A stretch of 64,000 nucleotides of DNA from Candidatus Saccharimonadota bacterium (GCA_034521515.1 JAXHMH010000002.1:280379-344378), one strand, 5' to 3'. Counted from the first letter of the stretch, positions 6,591 through 61,064 are shown. Numbers and translations: made by a program. The notes: generated by a model from the letters alone, not told the origin.

Positions 6591-7640
6591 CTACTCTTTT
6601 TGGCATTTTGTACATATGTGCGTTCCTCTTCCAGCAACTCTTATTTTCTGAATGAATATACCCGGATGACGTGGGCATTGTTGCCCTTCGCGCCTAAATA
6701 CTCGCGCAAAACTGAGATAACTACCGCGCTTTCCCTCGGCGCTGACATAATCTTTATCAGTGCTGCCGCCTTTTTCTATAGCCAGCTCCAGCACATAGCG
6801 CAGTTCTTGAAATAATGTGTTCAGCTTGGCTGCAGGCACATTCTTGACCAGCGTTTTTGGATTAATTTTTGCCCCCCAAAGCGACTCGTCGGCGTAAATA
6901 TTGCCTACTCCGGCAAGAACCGTCTGGTCTAATATTGCTGCTTTTATGTTGGTGTTCTTACGCCGCTGCAAACGTTCTATAAATTGATCGGCAGTAAAAC
7001 TAGTTTCTAGCGGTTCTGGCCCAACTTTTTTCATAAAATCAATGTTAGGAACTTCAATTGTTGGGATAAGTTTGACCCACCCAAACTTGCGTTGGTCATT
7101 AAAGAAAAGATGCGCACCACACTGCTGTGCTTTTTGGCCAAGCCAAAAATCTTGCCAGTGTTCTTGACCTACTGCGGTGTCAACTGCTCCAGTACTCAGG
7201 CGCCGTACGTCATGTACGACTTCTTCCGTGCTTCGCAGTTTCCTTACATTAGACTCAAGTGCATCATCTCTTCCTTGCAGACAGAGTATTACCCTTGTTG
7301 ATTTATCCGGCAGTCTATCAACTAAGCTACTGTTAGGGTGTCCGGCACCAAACCGTTCCTCTTGACGCTTGACGCTTGACGCTTGACGCTTGACGTACAC
7401 CATCTGGCCGGTCATTTTCAAGTGACATACTAGTGAATACTGGCTATCCAGCTCAATCAATAAGACCTTAGCCCGACGCTTCACAGCCGTCACGCAAGCG
7501 CCAATTAAAAACTGCTCAACATCTGACTCGGCGTTCGGAAACGACTTAGCCCAATCATGCCAAACCGCAGCCACTCGTTTTCCAACAATTAGCTCTGATA
7601 ACCCACGCCTGACGGTCTCAACTTCAGGCAACTCTGGCAT
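6591..7640 (-). CDS. mutM: formamidopyrimidine-DNA glycosylase (Fpg/MutM) with a large internal insertion
   Basis: MPELPEVETVRRGL is the catalytic N-terminus (Pro2, Glu3). A C-terminal zinc-finger-like CPRH...CTKC is present. At 349 aa it exceeds the usual ~270-280 aa. Confidence 0.85.
   Translation of the reverse strand: MPELPEVETVRRGLSELIVGKRVAAVWHDWAKSFPNAESDVEQFLIGACVTAVKRRAKVLLIELDSQYSLVCHLKMTGQMVYVKRQASSVKRQEERFGAGHPNSSLVDRLPDKSTRVILCLQGRDDALESNVRKLRSTEEVVHDVRRLSTGAVDTAVGQEHWQDFWLGQKAQQCGAHLFFNDQRKFGWVKLIPTIEVPNIDFMKKVGPEPLETSFTADQFIERLQRRKNTNIKAAILDQTVLAGVGNIYADESLWGAKINPKTLVKNVPAAKLNTLFQELRYVLELAIEKGGSTDKDYVSAEGKRGSYLSFARVFRREGQQCPRHPGIFIQKIRVAGRGTHICTKCQKE
7363..7397. repeat. heptanucleotide tandem repeat (TTGACGC x4 plus one imperfect copy) inside mutM
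   Basis: Read directly from the sequence: ttgacgc ttgacgc ttgacgc ttgacgc ttgacgt. It encodes YVKRQASSVKRQ on the minus strand. Confidence 0.95.
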
Positions 7641-9582: not shown

Positions 9583-10049
9583 TAGTTTCTACCCTTAAAT
9601 GTCACAAACATTCGTTATAAATTAACAATCGACGCCTACCTTAGTGGTAAACGCCGATTGTAAGCGGGTGTGACGGTGTAAGAATCCTATAAAACGTGTT
9701 TTACTCTCGCGGGGACAAGATTACGTAAAACAGCGATTTATAGTTGAGTTTTGGCCTGTCGTTCCCTAGCACACATCACCCTGCTGCAATTGAGTAAGAA
9801 GGGAGTTAGATCGGTTACGCCACTTGCTCGGTTATCACATAGGCGTCCATCTAATAGTGATAACGTCAACGCACCCTAACTCAATTGTGCCCACATTATA
9901 GTACTTTTTGTAATTTATGTCAATGCTTGAGCAGCGTTTACTTAAGCAGTTCCGTAAACTCTGCGGGATACTTATGACTTAGGCGTGTGACTGCCGCCTT
10001 CGCAAACCGGACACCAAAATCAATAATCTCTTTTTCTAGTACCTGCATA

Positions 10050-47039: not shown

Positions 47040-47115
47040 AATACGTGTACTTCGACTACGTACTCGACAATTAGCTACATAGCTTTCATAAATGAACCTC
47101 AAATAATCTCTTAAT

Positions 47116-47156
47116 CTCCCCCTTTGTTCACGATCGTGAACAAAGGGGGAGGTTTT
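47116..47156 (+). terminator. rho-independent terminator of the 45960-47039 gene
   Basis: CTCCCCCTTTGTTCACG pairs with CGTGAACAAAGGGGGAG (17 bp), followed by GTTTTT. Confidence 0.8.
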
Positions 47157-47219
47157 TGGTTGATAGTTTTATCTATTTGAACCTGCTAATTGCCTGATTG
47201 TTTAGATCTAAATTCAAAT

Positions 47220-47443
47220 CCACCGTTTCAACAGAAACAAAAAAACCCACCTGAACAGTGGGTTCTTTTCTTCCTGGCTTGTCACCCATCGATCTTGAGC
47301 CTCAGGGTCGAAAGATGAGCCTGTCGAATGGGCTTGCCGTGAGCCTGTCGAATGGACTTGCCATGAGCTTGTCGAATGGGCCTGCCGTGAGCCTGTCGAA
47401 TGGGCTTGCCATGAGCCTGTCGAATGGCGGAAGGAGAGGGATT
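47220..47443 (-). repeat. orphan tRNA-Ser trailer
   Basis: On the tRNA-sense (minus) strand the order is as follows. First ATCCCTCTCCTTCCGCCA-type 3' end (47425-47443). Then four TTCGACAGGCTCAYGGCARGYCCA units (47317-47424), then one long unit (47275-47316). Last comes a 58-bp block that also occurs at 47546-47603. Confidence 0.9.
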
Positions 47444-47600
47444 ATAGCCTCAGGCCAGGCAGCCTATTTTGTCTAGTTACTTTGGCTGCTTGGCTTCAGC
47501 ATATAATCTCGCTAACCGCTCGATTATCTGAACCCGGGTTCGAACCCACCGTTTCAACAGAAACAAAAGAACCCACCTGAACAGTGGGTTCTTTTCTTCC

Positions 47601-47691
47601 TGGCGGAAGGAGAGGGATTCGAACCCTCGGTGCCGTTGCCGGCACAACTGTTTTCGAGACAGTCCAGTTCGACCACTCCTGCACCCTTCCA
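47601..47691 (-). tRNA. tRNA-Ser (anticodon CGA), CCA encoded
   Basis: Hand fold: acceptor GGAAGGG/TCCTTCC, anticodon stem ACTGT/ACAGT, loop CTCGAAA, long variable arm, T-arm GAGGG TTCGAAT CCCTC. Confidence 0.9.
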
Positions 47692-47713
47692 CGGTTGCTA
47701 TTCTAACAAAAGA

Positions 47714-48223
47714 CTAACTTAGCGACACAATAGCGCCCATGTAGCTCGTCGGGATACGTCTTTTACAGATTTCTACCCGTCCGCGTTTTGCACTGGCGTG
47801 TATATACCTGACCGTTTCATCTTCTACCGTCAACACTATACCCATATGCCCTGGCATTTCAGTTTGCTGGTCGCCAATATCGTAGTACTTTTGTGTGATT
47901 AATAACGCTCCTGCCTCTAGAGCAGATTGCTTAAACATTACTTGCTCAGTTTGTGCGTCATTCCACATATCTCGCACATGCCGCACTTGATCAGGCCAAT
48001 CACTAGGCCTCAACCCTTTCACGTCGCAGATAGATTTTATAACAAAGCCTGAGCAATCAAATTCATCTGGTCCAATCCCTATTTCTGGGCAGTTTTCACG
48101 GGGCAGTGCAATACAATCACCGGCTACAAAATGATGGTAAATTGCCGGCTTATACAGGTACGCACCTGATGCTTGAATGAGTTCTTGCCCGAAGGTCTCA
48201 ATCTTGGTTTTGATATCCCCCAA
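47714..48223 (-). CDS. NlpC/P60 family cysteine peptidase
   Basis: FDCSGFV (catalytic Cys), PGHMGIV (His) and IHAS. No obvious signal peptide. TTG start. Confidence 0.6.
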   Translation of the reverse strand: MGDIKTKIETFGQELIQASGAYLYKPAIYHHFVAGDCIALPRENCPEIGIGPDEFDCSGFVIKSICDVKGLRPSDWPDQVRHVRDMWNDAQTEQVMFKQSALEAGALLITQKYYDIGDQQTEMPGHMGIVLTVEDETVRYIHASAKRGRVEICKRRIPTSYMGAIVSLS

Positions 48224-48282
48224 ATAAATTACAGCAAGTCTAGCACCGATATATACGTACAGTAAATTGCTCCCGCTTAAAG

Positions 48283-50016
48283 TTAAGAGCTATCAATAGG
48301 CTGCTTCTTAGTAAAACGCTCCTTTAGGTTAGCGATGTCATAACGCCATTCCCATACTCCATAGCCTGCAGCTAACGCCACCATAAAGCCGGCAAACCAC
48401 CAACTCAGCGGTGTCGGACGCGCCACCGTTGTAACATCACGCACGTTCATCTCCGGCAGTTCGGTCATCGCTGCTGCCACATTCCGGCAGCGGTTAGTTT
48501 CTGGATTGCGTTCTTGCCCAGGACTACACGGCTTTAGCCCGGACGTTTGATTAATATTACGGCAACGGTTAGTTTCTGGGTTTCTTTCCTGGTGAGGCTT
48601 ACAAGGTACCAGTTGGCGGGTACTACTTGTTACAGAACGGCATCTGTTTGTTTCTGGATTGCGTTCTTGCCCAGGACGGCATGGCACTAGGGAAGAGCCA
48701 GAGTCAATCTTCCGGCAACGGTTCGTCTCTGGATTGCGTTCTTGATCCGAATCACACGGCTTGAGCTCAGAGGTGCTGCTCACGATATTGCGACAACGAC
48801 CGGTATCTGGATTGCGCTCCTTACCTTCCTTGCAATCGGCGTATTCTTGATATTTATTCTCTTGACCCAGGGTTAGTTCATAAGTCTGCCGCCAGTCATC
48901 ATCACCAAACCAAGCCCATGAGGTTTCCGGCCGTAAATCAGAATATTTCTGGGCATCAACCTCTTCTTGTCCGTCAGATGACAATACATATACTGTGCCG
49001 GTAGTTGTTTTGGTAAGTGTCAGTTCCGTGTTTGCAATCTGTATCGTCAAATAATCATGCGGCTCTACAACCTCATCGGCAAACACATAGGTGTTATCGT
49101 TGCGATTGGTTTGCAACTGGCAACCATCCAACTCAGCTTCCTGGTTGGTCAGATTATGCAGCTCTATGAACTGTTCGTCTAAGTTAGCTCCAATTTCAGA
49201 TATCACTACACCCTCGCAAATGTTTATGTCGTCTTCTGGTGCCGTTTCTTGATCAGTATCGAGCTCTTTATCAACCTTTTGGCTTAAATCATCGTCGGGT
49301 TCATCCTCAGGCTTTTCACCGGACTGTTCTTCAGGTTCTTCCTCATCGTCTGGCTCAGGATCAGGCTCAGGCAAGGGACATTCCAGACCAGCTCCGGGCA
49401 TAGGTATCTCGTTGATGGTAAAATCAAGCGCGTTATTACCGGTATCAACTATCAGGCCATCCTGGCCAAAACACCGTATAAGGGACTGGTCTGGCTGCGG
49501 CGCCCCAGCTGGGCTCGTAAGGTAATGCTCGGGGTCACCGTAGCCAACCATATCTACAAGCTCCCCGTCGTTATCAAACAGCCTGATAGTCCCATCATGG
49601 TAGTTTAAGTAACCTGAGGCTGTCCGAGAATCGAGTAGGAAATTCGCCTCCGGCAGATAGCTTTCATAGCTCACCACAAAAAACCCATCAGGCTGTATTT
49701 CGTAACCTACATCTGCATCAGAATCATCCTCAAACAAGACTATAGAACGGGTTGTTGTGCCCTTTTCATTTGCAAACTCTAGCTCCCACCCATCAAGCGA
49801 TACGGTCTCATTGTGCGGGTTATATAGCTCTATAAACTCGTGAGTTCCAACTACGCTACCAGCATCTTCTCCGTCATCTACTGTGCCTCTGTTTTGAAAC
49901 TCACTAATCAAAATCAATGTTTCCGTTGCCGGGGAGTCCTCTGCAACGGCACCGGCAGCCCAAAATAACGGCAAAACAAATCCCAAAACCAGTGCCCATA
50001 CCCACCGTTTGTTCAT
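48283..50016 (-). CDS. surface protein with two lamin-tail-like domains, five Cys-bracketed repeats and a C-terminal membrane anchor
   Basis: Signal peptide. LTD-like segments (HEFIELYNPHNETVSLDGWELEF and EQFIELHNLTNQEAELDGCQLQ). Five copies of C-x4-(Q/K)ERNP(E/D)T(N/G)RCR. A terminal transmembrane helix. Confidence 0.7.
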   Translation of the reverse strand: MNKRWVWALVLGFVLPLFWAAGAVAEDSPATETLILISEFQNRGTVDDGEDAGSVVGTHEFIELYNPHNETVSLDGWELEFANEKGTTTRSIVLFEDDSDADVGYEIQPDGFFVVSYESYLPEANFLLDSRTASGYLNYHDGTIRLFDNDGELVDMVGYGDPEHYLTSPAGAPQPDQSLIRCFGQDGLIVDTGNNALDFTINEIPMPGAGLECPLPEPDPEPDDEEEPEEQSGEKPEDEPDDDLSQKVDKELDTDQETAPEDDINICEGVVISEIGANLDEQFIELHNLTNQEAELDGCQLQTNRNDNTYVFADEVVEPHDYLTIQIANTELTLTKTTTGTVYVLSSDGQEEVDAQKYSDLRPETSWAWFGDDDWRQTYELTLGQENKYQEYADCKEGKERNPDTGRCRNIVSSTSELKPCDSDQERNPETNRCRKIDSGSSLVPCRPGQERNPETNRCRSVTSSTRQLVPCKPHQERNPETNRCRNINQTSGLKPCSPGQERNPETNRCRNVAAAMTELPEMNVRDVTTVARPTPLSWWFAGFMVALAAGYGVWEWRYDIANLKERFTKKQPIDSS

Positions 50017-50063
50017 ATTATAAACAGCATACCGTTTATGCTTACTTTATGTCAAAAAGCTTA

Positions 50064-51518
50064 CTAAATCGGTGTTTCTTTTCTAAAATCATGGCCTGTT
50101 TTACGCCATATATACACCGCAACAAGCACCATAGCGATGTAGCTCATAACTAAACCAGGTATCGATAGCGAAGATTCATGATGCGCCCACGGTATTGATG
50201 ACAGCCAACCTGTCAGACTTGTCATATACCACAACACAGCGTAGGCCGGCAGTCCGATTAATCCCGCTAGCATTGGTAGTAGTGCGCTGCTCATGCCAGC
50301 CACTACCGTCAGTAGCATGACAACTGGCACCAGGGGTAGGATCAAAAGGTTAGACAACAACGCCAATGGCGAATAAAAACCAAAGGTCACTAAGACAATC
50401 GGCAGGGTGGTAATCTGTGCCGCTGTTGTCGCCACCAGCAAATCACGCACGTAACCCGGTTTTTTACTGCCCCAAAAATAACGGTGCAGTAACGGTGCCA
50501 GGATAATGACGCCCGAAAATGCTGCAAACGATAAAAACCAACCAACATCTCCCCATATAAACGATGGGTTTATCAGCAAGGTCATAGCAGCAACCAGTAA
50601 CAGCAAAACAACTGGGTGAACCACCCGTCCGTAATACCACGCGGTTAAACTCAAGCCTGCTACAAGCGAGGCTCGCGTCATGGACGTGCTAAAACCAGTT
50701 AGTAGTAAAAACCCTCCGATCATCAAGCCACTAAAAAACATTGCTAGATACTTGGAACGACCAGCCAATGCTTTACGCGTTGCTTTCACAATAATAGTCA
50801 GATGAAACCCGCTGGCAACCACCAAATGCGACAAGCCCAGAAGCCTAAACTCGTCGCTAAGGGTTTGTGGTAATGCTCGCTTTTGGCCGGCAACGTAACT
50901 CACTCCCAGGCTGGCTTCCGGCTCCGGTACGCTGCCGCGGACTTGCTCGGTAAACCAATCACGAACTTGCCGGGCAACATCTCCCGGCTCAGGCCGCTCG
51001 GCCTCAATAAGTTCTGCCCTAAACATCGAGCCTGACAAGGTACCGAAACCATCATTCAAAACCCCTTTCACGACCACTACGTCGCTACGTTTAATCTCGG
51101 CATTTGAGGTCGTACTAATCCAAACGTATCCAGGCAAAGGCTCGCCATCAATCACGACGTCACCTAATCTGAGCCGCTGATCACCGCTGGATCCGCGCGT
51201 TGTGTCATCGGCCACAACACCTTGCAGCCTAACTTGACGGCCATAAAATGGTTCGTAGCTTTGTAGCTGCCATAGCTCTGAAGTACCTCTATACAACCCG
51301 ACAAAACAACCGCTTATGAACGCCAAAAGCACAAACAATAACTCTCGCTTTAATAGCGCAATACTCAATAGTGCGCCAGCTACCACGAGCCAGGGCAGGG
51401 CGGCAAACAAGCCCGGTGGTATAAGCAACGAACCAGCTGCACCGACAAGCACGCCACCGGCAGTTGCAGCAAAAATCCATGACACATGAATCGGTTTATG
51501 GAACAGCCTGGCTCGCAT
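50064..51518 (-). CDS. comEC: ComEC/Rec2 DNA internalisation channel (membrane core only)
   Basis: Multi-pass membrane protein with LGLSHLVVASGFHL, the competence-domain signature. Confidence 0.8.
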   Translation of the reverse strand: MRARLFHKPIHVSWIFAATAGGVLVGAAGSLLIPPGLFAALPWLVVAGALLSIALLKRELLFVLLAFISGCFVGLYRGTSELWQLQSYEPFYGRQVRLQGVVADDTTRGSSGDQRLRLGDVVIDGEPLPGYVWISTTSNAEIKRSDVVVVKGVLNDGFGTLSGSMFRAELIEAERPEPGDVARQVRDWFTEQVRGSVPEPEASLGVSYVAGQKRALPQTLSDEFRLLGLSHLVVASGFHLTIIVKATRKALAGRSKYLAMFFSGLMIGGFLLLTGFSTSMTRASLVAGLSLTAWYYGRVVHPVVLLLLVAAMTLLINPSFIWGDVGWFLSFAAFSGVIILAPLLHRYFWGSKKPGYVRDLLVATTAAQITTLPIVLVTFGFYSPLALLSNLLILPLVPVVMLLTVVAGMSSALLPMLAGLIGLPAYAVLWYMTSLTGWLSSIPWAHHESSLSIPGLVMSYIAMVLVAVYIWRKTGHDFRKETPI

Positions 51519-51521
51519 GCC

Positions 51522-52268
51522 TTAAAAATCTCCAACAACTGGGAGTATTTGACCTGGGCAAGTTTGTAGCACTCGTTTTATCGCGTTATGCTCATTACGA
51601 GTTACCCATAGATCATACTCCAGCTTTATAGCAATTTGGCGAGCAACATATTGGCACCTATATCTTTCGTGGGGCAGCCAGTCGGCGGCATCTTTGTCGC
51701 CTTTCTCCATATTGGACGCACCATCAACCGCTATTAAAATGAGCGGGTCGTTATAGAACTCTTGTCTGCGTTTGTAATCAAGCTGCTGAGCTCCTTTCTG
51801 CCAAGCGTCCGAGACCGCCACTATATGCTCGATATGGATATCTCCGCTTGTTTCACGACCACGCTGGAAGGGGATTGTCTGGGCAGTAAACGGATCATCC
51901 GGCAAAACCCCCGACAAAACGGTACAATTATCATCATCCAACACAACTTCCTGTAGGTCGCGCTGCAAGATACGATTGCGCATATCACAACCAGCAACTT
52001 CCGCCCAGCCTGGGCTAAACTTATCACGTGCATAACCATCTAGCGATACACGATCTTTAACCGCCAGCTTTCCAAGCGATTCTATGGCTGACACGCGTAG
52101 CTCTTGGGGAACGCTTTGGACAGACAAGGTCTGCGGCGATTCAACAACTTGTTGGGGTTGAAGATAATCAAGCAAGGCTACGATTAAAAACCCCACAGCT
52201 AATAACAAAACTACCGTAAACCGTCGCCGTCTATGCGGCGAGGCTCGTCCCACCAACTTCATGCCCAA
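51522..52268 (-). CDS. membrane-anchored extracellular nuclease, DUF1524/HNH-type
   Basis: N-terminal transmembrane helix, then IHIEHIVAVSDAWQKG...NDPLILIAVDGASNMEKGDKDAADWLP, typical of the DUF1524 nuclease fold. Confidence 0.65.
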   Translation of the reverse strand: MGMKLVGRASPHRRRRFTVVLLLAVGFLIVALLDYLQPQQVVESPQTLSVQSVPQELRVSAIESLGKLAVKDRVSLDGYARDKFSPGWAEVAGCDMRNRILQRDLQEVVLDDDNCTVLSGVLPDDPFTAQTIPFQRGRETSGDIHIEHIVAVSDAWQKGAQQLDYKRRQEFYNDPLILIAVDGASNMEKGDKDAADWLPHERYRCQYVARQIAIKLEYDLWVTRNEHNAIKRVLQTCPGQILPVVGDF

Positions 52269-52312
52269 AACTATAACATAACACTAACTAAGCTGTTCTA
52301 ATCATCGATTAA

Positions 52313-52349
52313 GCTAAACGCGCCAGTCGAGTGGCGCGTTTAGCTTTTT
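52313..52349. terminator. hairpin (GCTAAACGCGCCA / TGGCGCGTTTAGC) with a T-run; its 29-nt core is also present at 23817-23845
   Basis: A 13-bp stem read directly, with TTTTT on the plus side. It lies 18-23 nt downstream of the minus-strand gene 52367-52696. Confidence 0.55.
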
Positions 52350-52366
52350 CAACAAATACCCTAACT

Positions 52367-52696
52367 TTAAGCCGCTCTATCTTGATCTTCAGCAGCTCGC
52401 TCAAGAACTGCTGCTGCATCCTCAAATCTTTGATAGTTGCCACCAATAAAATCTGGTGATAACTGGTTATCGTTATGTACGTTAATGTATACGTCGTACA
52501 CGTCGTCTTCTTCGACAAACCCACGAAGCCTACCGCCAGAATAGTAACCGTAAACTGCACCTAGACCAGCGTCAGGATTAACATACGCCCATATATCTTC
52601 GTTATTCTTTATTCGCACATGCGTCTCACTGGCACCGAACTCTAAAATTTCTATTTTACTCTGTTTATTTTCTTGTGGCTGTAGAGTTTCTCCCAT
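52367..52696 (-). CDS. hypothetical protein
   Basis: 109-aa ORF with no recognisable family. Confidence 0.45.
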   Translation of the reverse strand: MGETLQPQENKQSKIEILEFGASETHVRIKNNEDIWAYVNPDAGLGAVYGYYSGGRLRGFVEEDDVYDVYINVHNDNQLSPDFIGGNYQRFEDAAAVLERAAEDQDRAA

Positions 52697-53022
52697 GTTT
52701 TCTCCCTACATATGTTGTATACCAACCACAAACAAACCGCAAGGCGATACAGCAATATAAACCAGCCGACAAAGGCTAGTATTTACCTCTGTTCTATGCT
52801 AAAATCCACCCTGTTCGAGCCAGTTTGAGGCGAGTCATCGCCAATTGCGCACCCGTAGCCCCGCCTGCCTGTTCGAGCCCCCTGTCTTTCTGACAAGAAG
52901 GCCAGGCAGAACGGGCAGGTCAGCTGCCCCGATAGGGTAAAGACAATTAGCGTCACGCGCTCTATCCAGCTGATTTGCGAGAAGCAAGGTTAACAATCAA
53001 CGGTAAATTATTGCCAATTTAA

Positions 53023-53099
53023 GCACCCGTAGCTCAGCTGGATAGAGCGTCTGTTTGCGGTACAGGAGGTCGTAGGTTCGAATCCTGCCGGGTGTACCA
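53023..53099 (+). tRNA. tRNA-Arg (anticodon GCG by hand fold), CCA encoded
   Basis: Acceptor GCACCCG/CGGGTGT, D-arm GCTC AGCTGGATA GAGC, anticodon stem TCTGT/ACAGG, loop TTGCGGT, T-arm GTAGG TTCGAAT CCTGC. Confidence 0.85.
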
Positions 53100-53105
53100 C
53101 GTTAA

Positions 53106-53130
53106 AACCCGCCCATTTGGTCGGGTTTTT
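53106..53130 (+). terminator. rho-independent terminator after tRNA-Arg
   Basis: AACCCG pairs with CGGGTT, followed by a T-run. Confidence 0.7.
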
Positions 53131-53144
53131 GCGTGGTTCTTTTC

Positions 53145-53287
53145 GGCAGGTTCGGTTCTACGACTCAGCAGCTTGCTGATGAAAGTCGTAGGTTCGGCGT
53201 AGCGAAGTGCAGAAAAGAAAGCACCGTAGGTATTTTCTTTTCAAGCTAGCGGAGGAGGCTTTAGCCGCTATCCTGCCGGGTGTACCA
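53145..53287 (+). repeat. tRNA-Arg-derived structured module M1 (T-arm split by a 73-nt two-hairpin insertion, ends in the tRNA-Arg 3' end with CCA)
   Basis: gtcgtaggttcg (53185-53196) equals tRNA positions 53069-53080. atcctgccgggtgtacca (53270-53287) equals tRNA positions 53082-53099. The insertion 53197-53269 lies inside the T-loop. Confidence 0.8.
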
Positions 53288-53300
53288 GGAGAAATATAAG

Positions 53301-53323
53301 CCACCTTGCAAAAGGTGGTTTTT
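53301..53323 (+). terminator. rho-independent terminator directly after module M1
   Basis: CCACCTT pairs with AAGGTGG, followed by TTTTT. It starts 14 nt after the M1 CCA. Confidence 0.7.
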
Positions 53324-53372
53324 ATTTCTGCTCGATGCTCGAGCCGGGATTTGAACCGTCAAGCGAGCTTAT

Positions 53373-53523
53373 GCGGGCGGAAGGTTCGGTGTAGCGCCGC
53401 TCAGCCGAGAAAGCGCTTTAGCATTTTCTCGGCAAGCAAGCGGAAAAGGACTTTAGTCCGCTATCCTGCCGCCCGCCTGTCTTTCTGGCAAGAAGGCCAG
53501 ACAGGACGGACAGGGGTGTACCA
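53373..53523 (+). repeat. tRNA-Arg-derived structured module M2 (homolog of M1, with an extra 38-nt hairpin element before the final GGTGTACCA)
   Basis: gcgggcgg-aaggttcgg, then a 73-nt insertion, then atcctgccgcccgc. The 38-nt element follows at 53477-53514, then ggtgtacca at 53515-53523. Confidence 0.75.
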
Positions 53524-58399: not shown

Positions 58400-59335
58400 T
58401 CAAAACCGGACTTTGCGCATCAGTTTATCGACCGTGTCTGGCGGACGATCTTCGTGCGGCAAGAAATTAGCAAGTGTCTCTACAATTTGATCGCCTTGCT
58501 CTGGCGGGAAATAGATTGTTATGCCGGGCATGAACCGTTTGAGCGGCATAAGCATAATCGACTCGATACCGCCTTCATCCTGAACAGTGAAGGTTCGAAA
58601 CATTTCATACGGATAATGATTTTGAGAAATAGTGATACCGCTGTCATCGATTTGATAATTTAGAACCTGTGGTTTACGCATCGCAAAAACTCCAAAAGTT
58701 ATCGCCACTACAATAATGACAATCGGCGTTATTAAATCACCAGTCAGTGCATAAAGACCGCCGGCCACTATCAGCGAAATAACGCCGAGAGCTACGTACC
58801 AGCCGGCGCCCTTATCATGGGCAACATATTCCGAGGCAGACCATTGGATCGCGGGTATATCGTCTTGAGTATCTGCACCAGCTTGATTGTTATTTGCTGG
58901 CGTCCAGGAAGGAGGGTTAGCCTCTGCCTGAGTTCTACCTGGCGGTTCTGTTGCAGGCTGGGTTTCATCCGCTTGAACCTGATTTGTAGCCGGTTGTATT
59001 GCCTCCGTAGCTGGTTTCTGCTCCATAGGTTGAGCTGGCTGAACTGGCTGTGTATCCTGCACACTTGAAGTATCTGTAGCATTATCAGCAGATGGTTGGC
59101 TATCTTGGCTTGATGCTGGGGTATTATTCGTGGCAGTTGGTTGTTGTATCGAAACATTATCCGTAGAAGACTGTTTTTCTGCCAAATCAGGGGTTGATGG
59201 TGCTGGCTGAGGAGACGGCTGCGCAGCAGGAGCGACCGGTTCTGGAGTCTTTGCCGGTTCAGTGCCGTTATTATCCGACTTATTAATGGGGTTGATTGTT
59301 TCACCTGGCTGCATACTAACCATATTGTACCGCAA
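58400..59335 (-). CDS. membrane protein with a P/Q/T/A-rich N-terminal region and a bacterial-PH-like C-terminal domain
   Basis: Two adjacent transmembrane helices (WYVALGVISLIVAGGLYAL, ITPIVIIVVAITFGVFA) followed by a ~90-aa domain. The family call is weak. Confidence 0.45.
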   Translation of the reverse strand: MRYNMVSMQPGETINPINKSDNNGTEPAKTPEPVAPAAQPSPQPAPSTPDLAEKQSSTDNVSIQQPTATNNTPASSQDSQPSADNATDTSSVQDTQPVQPAQPMEQKPATEAIQPATNQVQADETQPATEPPGRTQAEANPPSWTPANNNQAGADTQDDIPAIQWSASEYVAHDKGAGWYVALGVISLIVAGGLYALTGDLITPIVIIVVAITFGVFAMRKPQVLNYQIDDSGITISQNHYPYEMFRTFTVQDEGGIESIMLMPLKRFMPGITIYFPPEQGDQIVETLANFLPHEDRPPDTVDKLMRKVRF

Positions 59336-59563
59336 AGCCTTTTATGCTTACACCTCTTTACGAAACAGATGGAATACAAGCGGGTAGTTTGTTATAATCT
59401 ACTTCTGTTACAATCTGTAATTACAGCCCGGCCAATTGGCCAAACCAGGCAGCCTGCCCGCTGTTTGGAATTTTGAGAGGAGAAGACTTGTTTGGATAGC
59501 TATTTTTGCCGAGTAAACTTGTTTTGTCGGCGAATGAGCTATCCAAGCTTCACACTTCGACGA

Positions 59564-59869
59564 GGAGAGGTACCCAAGTGGCTGCTGCGTGAAACGTGAA
59601 TTGTTCGACGGTTTGCGGCAAACCAGATAAGGTAACAGGTATACTGCACATTACAATTCAAATACGGATAAATACCCGAGTGGCTGCTGCGTGAAACGTG
59701 AATTGTTCGACGGTTTGCGGCAAACCAGATAAGGTAACAGGTATACTGCACATTACAATTCAAATACGGATAAATACCCGAGTGGCTGCTCAAGTGAAAC
59801 GTGAATTGTTCGACGGTTTGCAGCAAACCAGATAAGGTAACAAGTATAATGCACGTACAGCTAGAATAC
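59564..59869 (+). repeat. three tandem 102-bp units, each beginning with a tRNA-Ser 5' acceptor/D-arm-like sequence
   Basis: The units span 59564-59665, 59666-59767 and 59768-59869. Unit 1 starts ggagaggtacccaagtggctg, identical to the first 21 nt of the adjacent tRNA. Units 2 and 3 start ggataaatacccgagtggctg. All three contain gacggtttgc, which also occurs in the tRNA anticodon arm. Confidence 0.95.
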
Positions 59870-59962
59870 GGAGAGGTACCCAAGTGGCTGAAGGGGACGG
59901 TTTGCTAAATCGTTAGGGGGTGGAAACACCCCGCGAGGGTTCGAATCCCTCTCTCTCCGCCA
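59870..59962 (+). tRNA. tRNA-Ser (anticodon GCT), CCA encoded
   Basis: Acceptor GGAGAGG/TCTCTCC, anticodon stem ACGGT/ATCGT, loop TTGCTAA, long variable arm, T-arm GAGGG TTCGAAT CCCTC. Confidence 0.9.
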
Positions 59963-59993
59963 TGAACCATATGGTTCATAGCTATGGTAGTAC

Positions 59994-60083
59994 GGAAGGG
60001 TGACCGAGTGGTTGAAGGTACTTGTCTTGAAAACAAGCGTGCCGGCAACGGTACCGTGGGTTCGAATCCCACCCCTTCCGCCA
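59994..60083 (+). tRNA. tRNA-Ser (anticodon TGA), CCA encoded
   Basis: Acceptor GGAAGGG/CCCTTCC, anticodon stem CTTGT/ACAAG, loop CTTGAAA, long variable arm, T-arm GTGGG TTCGAAT CCCAC. Confidence 0.9.
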
Positions 60084-60240
60084 TTCGACAAGCTCATGAC
60101 AAGCCCATTCGACAGGCTCATGGCAAGTCCATTCGACAAGCTCATCTTTCGACCCTGAGGCTCAAGATCGATGGGTGACAAGCCCGTTCGACAGGCTCAT
60201 CTTTCGACCCTGAGGCTCAAGATCGATGGGTGACAGGCCA
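60084..60240 (+). repeat. tRNA-Ser trailer repeats: two 24-nt units and two ~54-nt units, three of the four ending in CCA
   Basis: TTCGACAAGCTCATGACAAGCCCA (60084-60107), TTCGACAGGCTCATGGCAAGTCCA (60108-60131), and long units at 60132-60185 and 60187-60240. Confidence 0.95.
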
Positions 60241-60251
60241 GGAAGAAAATT

Positions 60252-60277
60252 ACCCGCCATGCAGGTGGGTTTTTTTG
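60252..60277 (+). terminator. rho-independent terminator of the tRNA-Ser operon
   Basis: ACCCGCC pairs with GGTGGGT (one G-U pair), followed by TTTTTTT. Confidence 0.75.
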
Positions 60278-60401
60278 TTTCTGTTGAAATGGTGGATATT
60301 AATTTAAATCCAAGCAAACAAGCTATTAGTCGATTCATACGGATAAACCGATCAATCAAAAAACACCCCTTTTGTTCACGATCGTGAACGGAGAGGGTAG
60401 T

Positions 60402-61064
60402 TTATTGTTTTTGGGCAAAGGCGGTAGCGTATACCTTTTTGGTGCCAGCTTGTTTAAGTTCTCTAGCAGCTGCTTCCAGAGTAGCCCCAGTGGTTGTTAT
60501 GTCATCAACCAACAGCACTGGTGACTTTATAACAGAAACTGGACGGAAGGCTCCTTGTAGCTGCTCAACTCGCGTCGTTTTATCAGATCCAACTTGCCGG
60601 CTGTGACCCTTCCTGGCCAACAAAGTTTTATGCCTTAATCCGCAACTGTTGGCTAACGACCTAGCAAGCAACTCTGCTTGATCATAGCCTCGCTGACGTC
60701 GCCTGCTAGTGGCAGTCGGCACATGAGTTACTAGAACATCCTTAGAAATATATGGCAGAGCCTCTATCATTAAACCGCTAATCACTTCCGCTGCAGCAAC
60801 TGTACGCTCAAACTTAAGCTTGTGGGTAAGATGGCGGGCGAGCGGAGTATAATCGGTGCGTATCCATACATGCTTTAACACTGATTTCTTTCGGCAACGC
60901 GAACAGGTTGCCGATTCTGTAGTCTGTGCCTGACACATATAACAACGTGGGGGCAGAGGATCGAATGCTTCAAACTCACACCACCTACACAGCAAGCTTC
61001 CTTCTTTCTTGCACAAGACACATCGATGAGGCGCCACCAAACCAATAAGCTTATCCACTATCAT
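60402..61064 (-). CDS. comF: ComF family protein (phosphoribosyltransferase-like, ComFC type)
   Basis: N-terminal Cys clusters (CVLCKK...CRWC, CYMC...CSRC) and the PRTase motif VLLVDDITTTGATL. Confidence 0.8.
   Translation of the reverse strand: MIVDKLIGLVAPHRCVLCKKEGSLLCRWCEFEAFDPLPPRCYMCQAQTTESATCSRCRKKSVLKHVWIRTDYTPLARHLTHKLKFERTVAAAEVISGLMIEALPYISKDVLVTHVPTATSRRRQRGYDQAELLARSLANSCGLRHKTLLARKGHSRQVGSDKTTRVEQLQGAFRPVSVIKSPVLLVDDITTTGATLEAAARELKQAGTKKVYATAFAQKQ

Follow-up and report, generated by a model that had tools for sequence, protein, structure and literature searches.

Tandem 102-bp modules bearing partial copies of the tRNA-Ser(GCT) 5' end directly precede the intact gene in a Candidatus Saccharimonadota genome

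The DNA analyzed here is a stretch of 64,000 nucleotides from a Candidatus Saccharimonadota bacterium (hereafter the window), in which a tRNA-Ser(GCT) gene is followed by a tRNA-Ser(TGA) gene and by a terminator-like hairpin that probably ends the operon (Table 1). Directly upstream of the first gene lies a tandem array, which Tandem Repeats Finder places at 59571-59890 with a period of 102, 3.1 copies, 92% matches and a score of 519. The units run head to tail from 59564, 59666 and 59768 at a constant period, and the same register continues to the start of the functional tRNA at 59870. An array in phase with the tRNA is what a sequence-only reading of this DNA had described, and Tandem Repeats Finder, ARAGORN and Rfam together show that it is real.

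Table 1. Features of the tRNA-Ser(GCT)-tRNA-Ser(TGA) locus and of the tRNA-Arg(GCG) locus in the window
Feature	Coordinates	Strand	Basis or remarks
Likely operon promoter: extended -10 TGT-TATAAT, then CTACTTCTGTT	59390-59409	+	Match to the clade-wide motif (59393-59409)
Native structured leader of tRNA-Ser(GCT), 154 nt	59410-59563	+	Folding; alignment to relatives' leaders
Stub A, tRNA nt 1-21, severed from the gene body	59564-59584	+	21/21; junction with native leader conserved with L027
Module 1: spacer B1 (59585-59665) plus stub A' GGATAAATACCCGAGTGGCTG (59666-59686)	59585-59686	+	102/102 with module 2; contains GACGGTTTGC, palindrome GGTTTGCGGCAAACC (59610-59624), TATACT (59640-59645), TACAAT (59652-59657)
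Module 2: spacer B1 plus stub A'	59687-59788	+	102/102 with module 1; TATACT (59742-59747), TACAAT (59754-59759)
Spacer B3, gene-proximal	59789-59869	+	87/103 with module 2 (counted with tRNA nt 1-21); TATAAT (59845-59850), TAGAAT (59862-59867)
Functional tRNA-Ser(GCT); nt 1-21 make up the final partial repeat	59870-59962	+	ARAGORN; Rfam tRNA model, 52.2 bits
tRNA-Ser(TGA), second operon gene	59994-60083	+	ARAGORN, Rfam
Intrinsic terminator-like hairpin with T run, probable operon end	60252-60270	+	
ComF-like gene	60402-61064	-	
Promoter-like TAAAATCCACCCTGTT upstream of tRNA-Arg(GCG)	52800-52815		
tRNA-Arg(GCG) 5' stub GCACCCGTAGC	52849-52859		GCCAATT at both 52840 and 53013
Perfect 16-nt inverted D-arm copy, tRNA-Arg(GCG)	52958-52973		
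tRNA-Arg(GCG)	53023-53099		Same kind of flanks (52800-53287)
Pseudo-3' half behind tRNA-Arg(GCG), split in the T-loop	53185-53196 (GTCGTAGGTTCG); 53270-53287 (ATCCTGCCGGGTGTACCA)		

The neighbouring ComF-like gene has its best relatives in metagenome-assembled genomes of Candidatus Saccharimonadales. The highest identities are 54% among GTDB genomes and 53% among JGI metagenomes, so the genome has no close relative in these collections. In the relatives, the tRNA-Ser(GCT)/tRNA-Ser(TGA) pair adjoins ComF, with tRNA-Arg(GCG) and tRNA-Ser(CGA) nearby. The order, orientation and spacing of the pair (21 to ~1000 nt) vary among genomes (loci L003-L030), which suggests that rearrangements around these tRNA genes are frequent. 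Elsewhere in the window, on the minus strand at 9800-9885, we found a c-di-GMP-II riboswitch aptamer that scores 58.8 bits, above the Rfam gathering threshold.

Each unit of the array begins with part of the tRNA's 5' end. Nucleotides 1-21 of the tRNA (GGAGAGGTACCCAAGTGGCTG) recur exactly in unit 1, while units 2 and 3 open with the degenerate stub GGATAAATACCCGAGTGGCTG; the matches to the tRNA are 21/21, 17/21 and 17/21, respectively. The motif TACCCRAGTGGCTG occurs four times in the 64-kb window, always at an array or tRNA site, against a chance expectation of 0.01. In addition, GACGGTTTGC, which is nt 27-36 of the tRNA and belongs to its anticodon arm, is found in all three units behind an insert of 22-23 nt (shuffle p ~0.006). 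The exact 21-nt copy in unit 1, the tRNA-start motif common to units 2 and 3, and the anticodon-arm element after a 22-nt insert had all been claimed from the sequence beforehand, and all three claims are confirmed, as is the observation that the stubs are copies of the 5' end, an atypical side for integrase footprints.

The arrangement can be written A-[B1-A']-[B1-A']-[B3-A-rest of tRNA], that is, as three modules, each consisting of an 81-nt spacer and a 21-nt 5' end, placed after position 21 of the tRNA, in the D-loop. Copies of the 5' end, the tRNA's own start included, always outnumber spacers by one. Modules 1 and 2 are identical at all 102 positions, while the gene-proximal copy (59789-59890, spacer B3 together with the first 21 nt of the tRNA) agrees with module 2 at 87 of 103 positions (84%), and unit 3 carries one +1 and one -1 indel that preserve the 102-bp period. 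Two identical modules beside a diverged third point to stepwise amplification; judged by these identities, module 2 appears to be the most recent duplicate and spacer B3 an older copy.

Perfect identity of two modules also raises the suspicion that the repeat was expanded or even created by the assembler, because their number (one, two or more) is not fixable from short reads, and the only independent contigs found, Logan contigs of ~1 kb from SRR26473340 obtained by exact-protein look-ups, do not reach the array. We nevertheless consider an artefact extremely unlikely: three distinguishable unit types are present (A-B1, A'-B1 and A'-B3), the junctions to leader and tRNA are unique, and independent assemblies of other genomes show the same architecture.

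The context upstream of the array bears on its origin. In related Saccharimonadales loci, the motif TGnTATAAT-(T/C)ACC(C/T)CTGTT precedes tRNA genes by 1-31 nt at 19 sites (loci L004, L006, L010, L013-L017, L027, L030, L086, L088, L095, L096, L098 and L099), a position suggesting that it is probably a tRNA promoter with a conserved discriminator or start region. The window holds a single good copy, which is located 460 nt upstream of tRNA-Ser(GCT) (Table 1). This placement would put the array inside a leader, and the array should thus be transcribed as leader sequence downstream of the conserved promoter.

The 154 nt between this motif and the array are strongly structured (MFE -56.4 kcal/mol, z = -5.4, with 0/200 shuffles folding as well). 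They can be aligned with the tRNA-Ser(GCT) leaders of L027, L016, L015 and L005, and the purine motif TTTWRAGGARAAGA is invariant in the window leader and these homologues. Lacking an Rfam match, the leader may represent a cis element or a small RNA that has not been described before. The junction between CTTCGACGA and GGAGAGG is common to the window and L027. Since the leader in L027 abuts the tRNA at this junction, the stub of unit 1 can be identified as the 5' end that the gene had originally, which the modules now separate from the gene body. The putative clade-wide tRNA promoter motif and the conserved structured leader are by-products of this analysis for studies of transcription in Saccharibacteria.

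The units themselves show no tRNA-like, structural or coding signal. Neither ARAGORN nor Rfam (E<=10) detects a tRNA in 59564-59869, and the 3' strand of the acceptor, CCTCTCC, is absent throughout 59380-59900. We also considered a unit as the decayed remnant of a complete tRNA and rejected this, because only the 10-mer GACGGTTTGC is significant and the global alignment is not. Folding of the units reveals no excess structure relative to shuffles (z -0.04 to +0.57). A minus-strand ORF of 114 aa (59539-59883) was likewise rejected as coding: it overlaps the tRNA, it is open through the periodicity because 102 = 34 x 3, and the analogous array in L003 has a period of 119. Rfam assigns no family to the units, either at the gathering threshold or at E<=10, and at E<=10 the RtT model (RF00391, gathering score 45 bits) matches neither 59300-60300 nor 47100-53500 nor any of five related loci. 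The 102-bp unit gave no match in exact-pattern scans of metagenome and viral contigs. Pfam scans of the ORFs at 41-64 kb detected no tyrosine or serine recombinase; the domains found there are ValRS, HTH-HAD, NlpC/P60, LTD, ComEC, GmrSD_C, NUDIX, polyprenyl synthase, ComF, Hsp20 and pilin.

The sequence-only reading had also pointed to a -10-like hexamer near the end of each unit and had proposed that the array is a stack of duplicated units, each made of a promoter plus a tRNA 5' end. The hexamers are present at the positions it gave (TATACT in units 1 and 2, TATAAT in unit 3), and they are accompanied by further ones, TACAAT in units 1 and 2 and TAGAAT in unit 3 (Table 1). All of these boxes lie in the 3' part of their unit, 8-19 nt ahead of the next stub or tRNA start. 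They resemble the gene-proximal boxes of relatives, where (G/T)TACAAT, TAGAAT or TATAAT is found 10-31 nt upstream of tRNA-Ser(GCT) when this gene comes after another tRNA. Because the distances are comparable, the promoter plus 5' end idea is possible for the proximal module. As a simple duplication of local upstream DNA it does not hold, since the leftmost stub is native and the spacer is unrelated to the native leader.

These boxes could also mean that the array was selected as a stack of tandem gene-proximal promoters that raises or buffers expression of the two tRNA-Ser genes, with the stubs as mere passengers. With the conserved promoter displaced to 460 nt, a proximal promoter could be useful, every unit offers candidate boxes at distances similar to those in relatives, and the older module has persisted at ~16% divergence. 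However, a sigma-70 scan finds no promoter inside 59564-59869, where the boxes have neither a usable -35 nor a TGn extension. The clade motif is absent from every unit, its ACCYCTGTT element following none of the array's -10-like boxes, and the TATACT of units 1 and 2 is weaker as a -10 box than unit 3's TATAAT. On this evidence we regard a selected promoter stack as unlikely, although plausible.

The spacer shares only ~25% identity with the upstream native leader and is thus unrelated to it, which excludes simple tandem duplication of local upstream DNA. No further copy of the 81-nt spacer exists in the window or in any related locus compared, and outside the 10-mer its comparison with the tRNA body reveals no significant collinear match (p = 0.07 and 0.28). 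Inside the spacer, GACGGTTTGC is followed by its own reverse complement, producing the palindrome GGTTTGC-R-GCAAACC. Nucleotides 29-60 of the spacer weakly match the 3' end of tRNA-Ser(TGA) and the spacer downstream of it in L027, L095 and L096, with p ~0.003 before correction in a set of 196 comparisons. This weak match is a hint, not proof, that the spacer may be a patchwork of pieces from the tRNA cluster. The possibility that the spacers constitute one mobile family was rejected, because the spacers of six loci share no sequence with one another or with the other loci compared.

The array is not a one-off: a layout of promoter, stub, spacer and intact tRNA was found at five other loci. The tRNA-Arg gene of L003 is preceded by 2 units of 119 bp that are 98% identical and that each open with tRNA nt 1-19. 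Stubs of 15, 19 and 16 nt were found at tRNA-Ser(GCT) of L003, tRNA-Arg of L026 and tRNA-Ser(TGA) of L009, respectively, and the fifth locus is the window's own tRNA-Arg (Table 1). Stub lengths in the six loci, the array included, are thus 11, 15, 16, 19, 19 and 21 nt, and the inserts measure 81-163 nt. A direct view of turnover is provided by L009 and L086, which are 99.5% identical over 5.7 kb and differ by a precise 134-bp indel, consisting of spacer and stub, inside tRNA-Ser(TGA) (L009 6715-6864, L086 5715-5730). A direct repeat of 16 bp from the 5' end of the tRNA borders the indel, which leaves the analogous module present in L009 and absent from L086; for the window genome, the searches found no relative of comparable closeness (best ComF identity 54%). 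This pair shows that modules are gained or lost within a species, through the repeats.

The same precise presence/absence difference between nearly identical genomes would be expected if the modules were inserted DNA, either by repeated site-specific integration of a mini-element with the tRNA 5' end as its attachment core (att-site accretion) or by transformation-linked, homology-facilitated illegitimate recombination anchored in the tRNA gene. A stub, an insert and an intact gene with direct repeats of the tRNA end are the product of integration into a tRNA gene (cf. PMC9897764). The spacers are unrelated to local sequence, the stubs always adjoin the conserved promoter, and genes for the competence proteins ComEC and ComF lie in the window. 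The L009/L086 indel, however, is equally explicable as a deletion between direct repeats, and most of the expected traces of insertion are missing: there is no integrase or recombinase gene within ~20 kb, the inserts are merely 81-163 nt long, the stub ends vary from 11 to 21 nt and so define no fixed crossover site, spacers of different loci have no sequence in common, and the unit was not found in the viral or metagenome collections scanned. We therefore consider DNA insertion distinctly unlikely. An integrase origin in particular is weakened by the absent recombinase genes and the variable stub ends.

The analogous loci also contain features that the window array lacks. In three analogous leaders the D-arm of the tRNA that follows recurs in inverted orientation within the spacer (p<0.001 each), perfectly over 15-16 nt in two loci and over 21 nt with three mismatches in the third, and the tRNA-Arg unit of L003 is strongly structured (z = -4.1). 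Such features would be expected of a functional leader RNA, in which the stubs and tRNA pieces would influence in cis how the pre-tRNA folds or is processed, serving for instance as decoys or as antisense to the D-arm or the acceptor strand. In the window, a predicted MFE fold of 59564-59962 places stub 1 in the acceptor helix instead of the true 5' end. However, any identical copy would displace the true 5' end in this way, so the fold is not evidence of function. Moreover, the window units have z values near 0 and contain no anti-D-arm segment, two of the three stubs (GGATAAA) are no longer complementary to the acceptor strand, and the spacers are not conserved between genomes. A leader RNA function of this kind is therefore very unlikely for the window array.

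We carried out a census of end copies at 103 Saccharimonadales tRNA genes, all of them tRNA-Ser or tRNA-Arg, accepting 15-nt copies with at most 1 mismatch and covering 500 nt upstream for 5' copies. A copy of the 5' end lies upstream of 4/103 tRNAs and downstream of 0/103. Copies of the 3' end are commoner, being found downstream of 22/103 tRNAs, and the lone upstream 3' copy turned out to be a neighbour's downstream copy. At this stringency, inverted end copies number 0 among the 103 tRNAs. The 3'-end copies (in L005, L006, L014, L022, L025, L026, L030, L083, L090-L092, L097, L101 and the window) are situated ~90-170 nt downstream of their own gene, usually behind the terminator and after a segment that pairs with the copy. 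Between L090 and L092, the tip of the hairpin is swapped inside such a module. Within the window, no tRNA-derived fragment of at least 16 nt lies more than 310 nt from its own tRNA gene.

Another kind of duplication was seen in L026, where the 167 nt behind tRNA-Ser(GCT) and behind tRNA-Ser(TGA) (6797-6963 vs 7269-7435) are 99.4% identical and include a 3'-end copy matching the GCT gene. By their identity, these repeats appear to be the result of a segmental duplication or gene conversion that extends beyond the genes.

Repeats and partial tRNA copies also flank other tRNA genes in the window. At tRNA-Arg(GCG), a promoter-like sequence, a 5' stub and an inverted D-arm copy precede the gene and a split pseudo-3' half follows it (Table 1), with the repeat reaching ~10 nt upstream of +1. 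Right behind the CCA end of tRNA-Ser(TGA) (60081-60239) there are 2.7 copies of a 24-bp unit, TTCGACARGCTCATGRCAAGYCCA, which has a T-loop-like start and a CCA end, and then 2.1 copies of a 55-bp unit. The region downstream of tRNA-Ser(CGA) (47230-47600, minus strand) contains the same repeats, with 4.7 copies of the 24-bp unit, and the same terminator module; here the repeats come after a 19-nt copy of the gene's own 3' end (47425-47443). On the basis of these common elements, the two downstream regions appear to be rearranged versions of each other.

Taken together, these observations lead us to favour the interpretation, with a probability of roughly 0.55, that the array is a neutral, amplifiable, non-coding duplication scar in the leader of the tRNA-Ser(GCT)-tRNA-Ser(TGA) operon. 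The proposed history would begin with the tRNA located directly behind the conserved promoter and the structured leader of ~150 nt, the arrangement seen today in L027. A module of ~100 bp, made up of the 81-nt spacer and a fresh copy of tRNA nt 1-21, would then have arrived after position 21 of the tRNA, in the D-loop. Such an event would keep the gene intact and leave the old 5' end behind as a 21-nt stub. Unequal recombination or replication slippage between the resulting 21-bp direct repeats could have raised the number of modules to three, the last event being recent. The array would now belong to a leader transcript that starts at the upstream promoter, with additional starts possible at the -10-like boxes of the spacers, and RNase P cleavage at 59870 would then discard it. 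The stubs are unable to give rise to tRNAs. The effect of the array on the cell would probably be small, amounting at most to some extra promoter activity.

Two observations count against a duplication scar of this kind. The older module has been kept despite ~16% divergence, which indicates that the array is not short-lived and leaves room for selection. Furthermore, the inverted D-arm copies in three analogous loci are not predicted by a purely neutral scar. Together with the question of the spacer source and the frequent 3'-side modules with their shared architecture, these inverted copies keep alive a broader reading: a systematic, polar process acting on Saccharimonadales tRNA genes, which would leave 5' stubs between promoter and gene and 3' stubs behind the gene, often with an inverted arm copy and with turnover within species. 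We consider such a process quite unlikely. If it exists, there may be a mechanism, not described to date, that acts generally on the tRNA genes of distantly related bacteria, and the 102-bp array would be an amplified example of the process; alternatively, the elements could have a function in cis, either controlling the folding or processing of pre-tRNA or serving as decoys for tRNA-binding factors. Should the recurrent stubs and inverted arm copies prove functional, they would represent a class of cis elements, new to science, that act on pre-tRNA.

If instead the favoured reading as a duplication scar is right, the locus would be a clean bacterial example of tRNA stub repeats on the 5' side. 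It would mark rearrangement of tRNA clusters in the reduced genomes of the CPR, and it would carry a warning for annotators that partial tRNA copies in these genomes are not integrase footprints.

It is instructive to compare the array with known systems that resemble it in part, of which the 178-bp repeats of E. coli tyrT (RtT) and the plastid trnF pseudogene arrays come closest. Several transcription starts ahead of a stable-RNA gene are known from the tandem promoters of stable-RNA operons, for example rrn P1/P2. The window may offer a comparable set of starts, judging from the boxes in its spacers, but rrn P1/P2 do not consist of a reiterated 5' end of the gene that they serve.

Partial tRNA copies in prokaryotes have otherwise been put down to mobile-element integration or to CRISPR spacers (PMC9897764). 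Integrases that target tRNA genes are normally associated with the 3' portion of the tRNA and with multi-kb inserts that include the integrase, ~9-23 kb in the examples given (PMC9897764). As in attL/attR duplications, where a direct repeat of the tRNA end flanks the insert and the incoming copy restores the gene (PMC9897764), the modules of the window are framed by tRNA-end repeats and followed by an intact gene. In contrast to those duplications, the window has a 5' stub, inserts of 81 nt and no integrase, and the ends of the stubs vary between loci.

Partial tRNA copies on the 5' side of a functional gene are known from plastids. In Brassicaceae, Solanaceae, Asteraceae and other families, trnF(GAA) pseudogene arrays consist of 1-7 tandem partial copies located just 5' of the functional gene; the copies follow sigma-70-type promoter motifs or lie between them, and their number depends on the lineage (PMC3786074). 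The plastid units are 32-73 bp long, centred on the anticodon domain and mostly without acceptor strands (PMC3786074). They are thus organellar and anticodon-centred, whereas the units of the window contain the acceptor 5' strand and the 5' half of the D-arm and are mostly non-tRNA spacer.

The 178-bp repeats of E. coli tyrT/tyrV (rttR/tpr) resemble the window array in that tandem units adjoin a tRNA in phase, each with a terminal tRNA stub. Direct inspection of E. coli K-12 downstream of tyrV gave a period of 178 and 3.1 copies, each unit ending in ATCCTTCCCCCACCACCA, which is the last 19 nt of tRNA-Tyr. As a positive control, the RtT covariance model (Rfam RF00391) matches four E. coli units at 133-138 bits, whereas it has no match in the window or the related loci, downstream modules included. 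One of the E. coli repeat units encodes rttR, as stated in a passage of PMC3318445 that cites Bosl & Kersten 1991. The E. coli units give rise to a stable RNA and contain the small tpr ORF, in contrast to the window units, which have no structure or coding signal; in both systems, the units belong to the transcript of a tRNA operon, in the window as a predicted leader. The E. coli units are a patchwork of direct and inverted pieces derived from the tRNA, and the downstream modules of Saccharimonadales show the same patchwork, in which an inverted 3' part is combined with the 5' half of the T-arm, an insert and a copy of the 3' end. The window array differs in polarity: E. coli tyrT has 3'-end stubs downstream of the gene and the window has 5'-end stubs upstream, so that the array is a 5'-side mirror image of the tyrT repeats.
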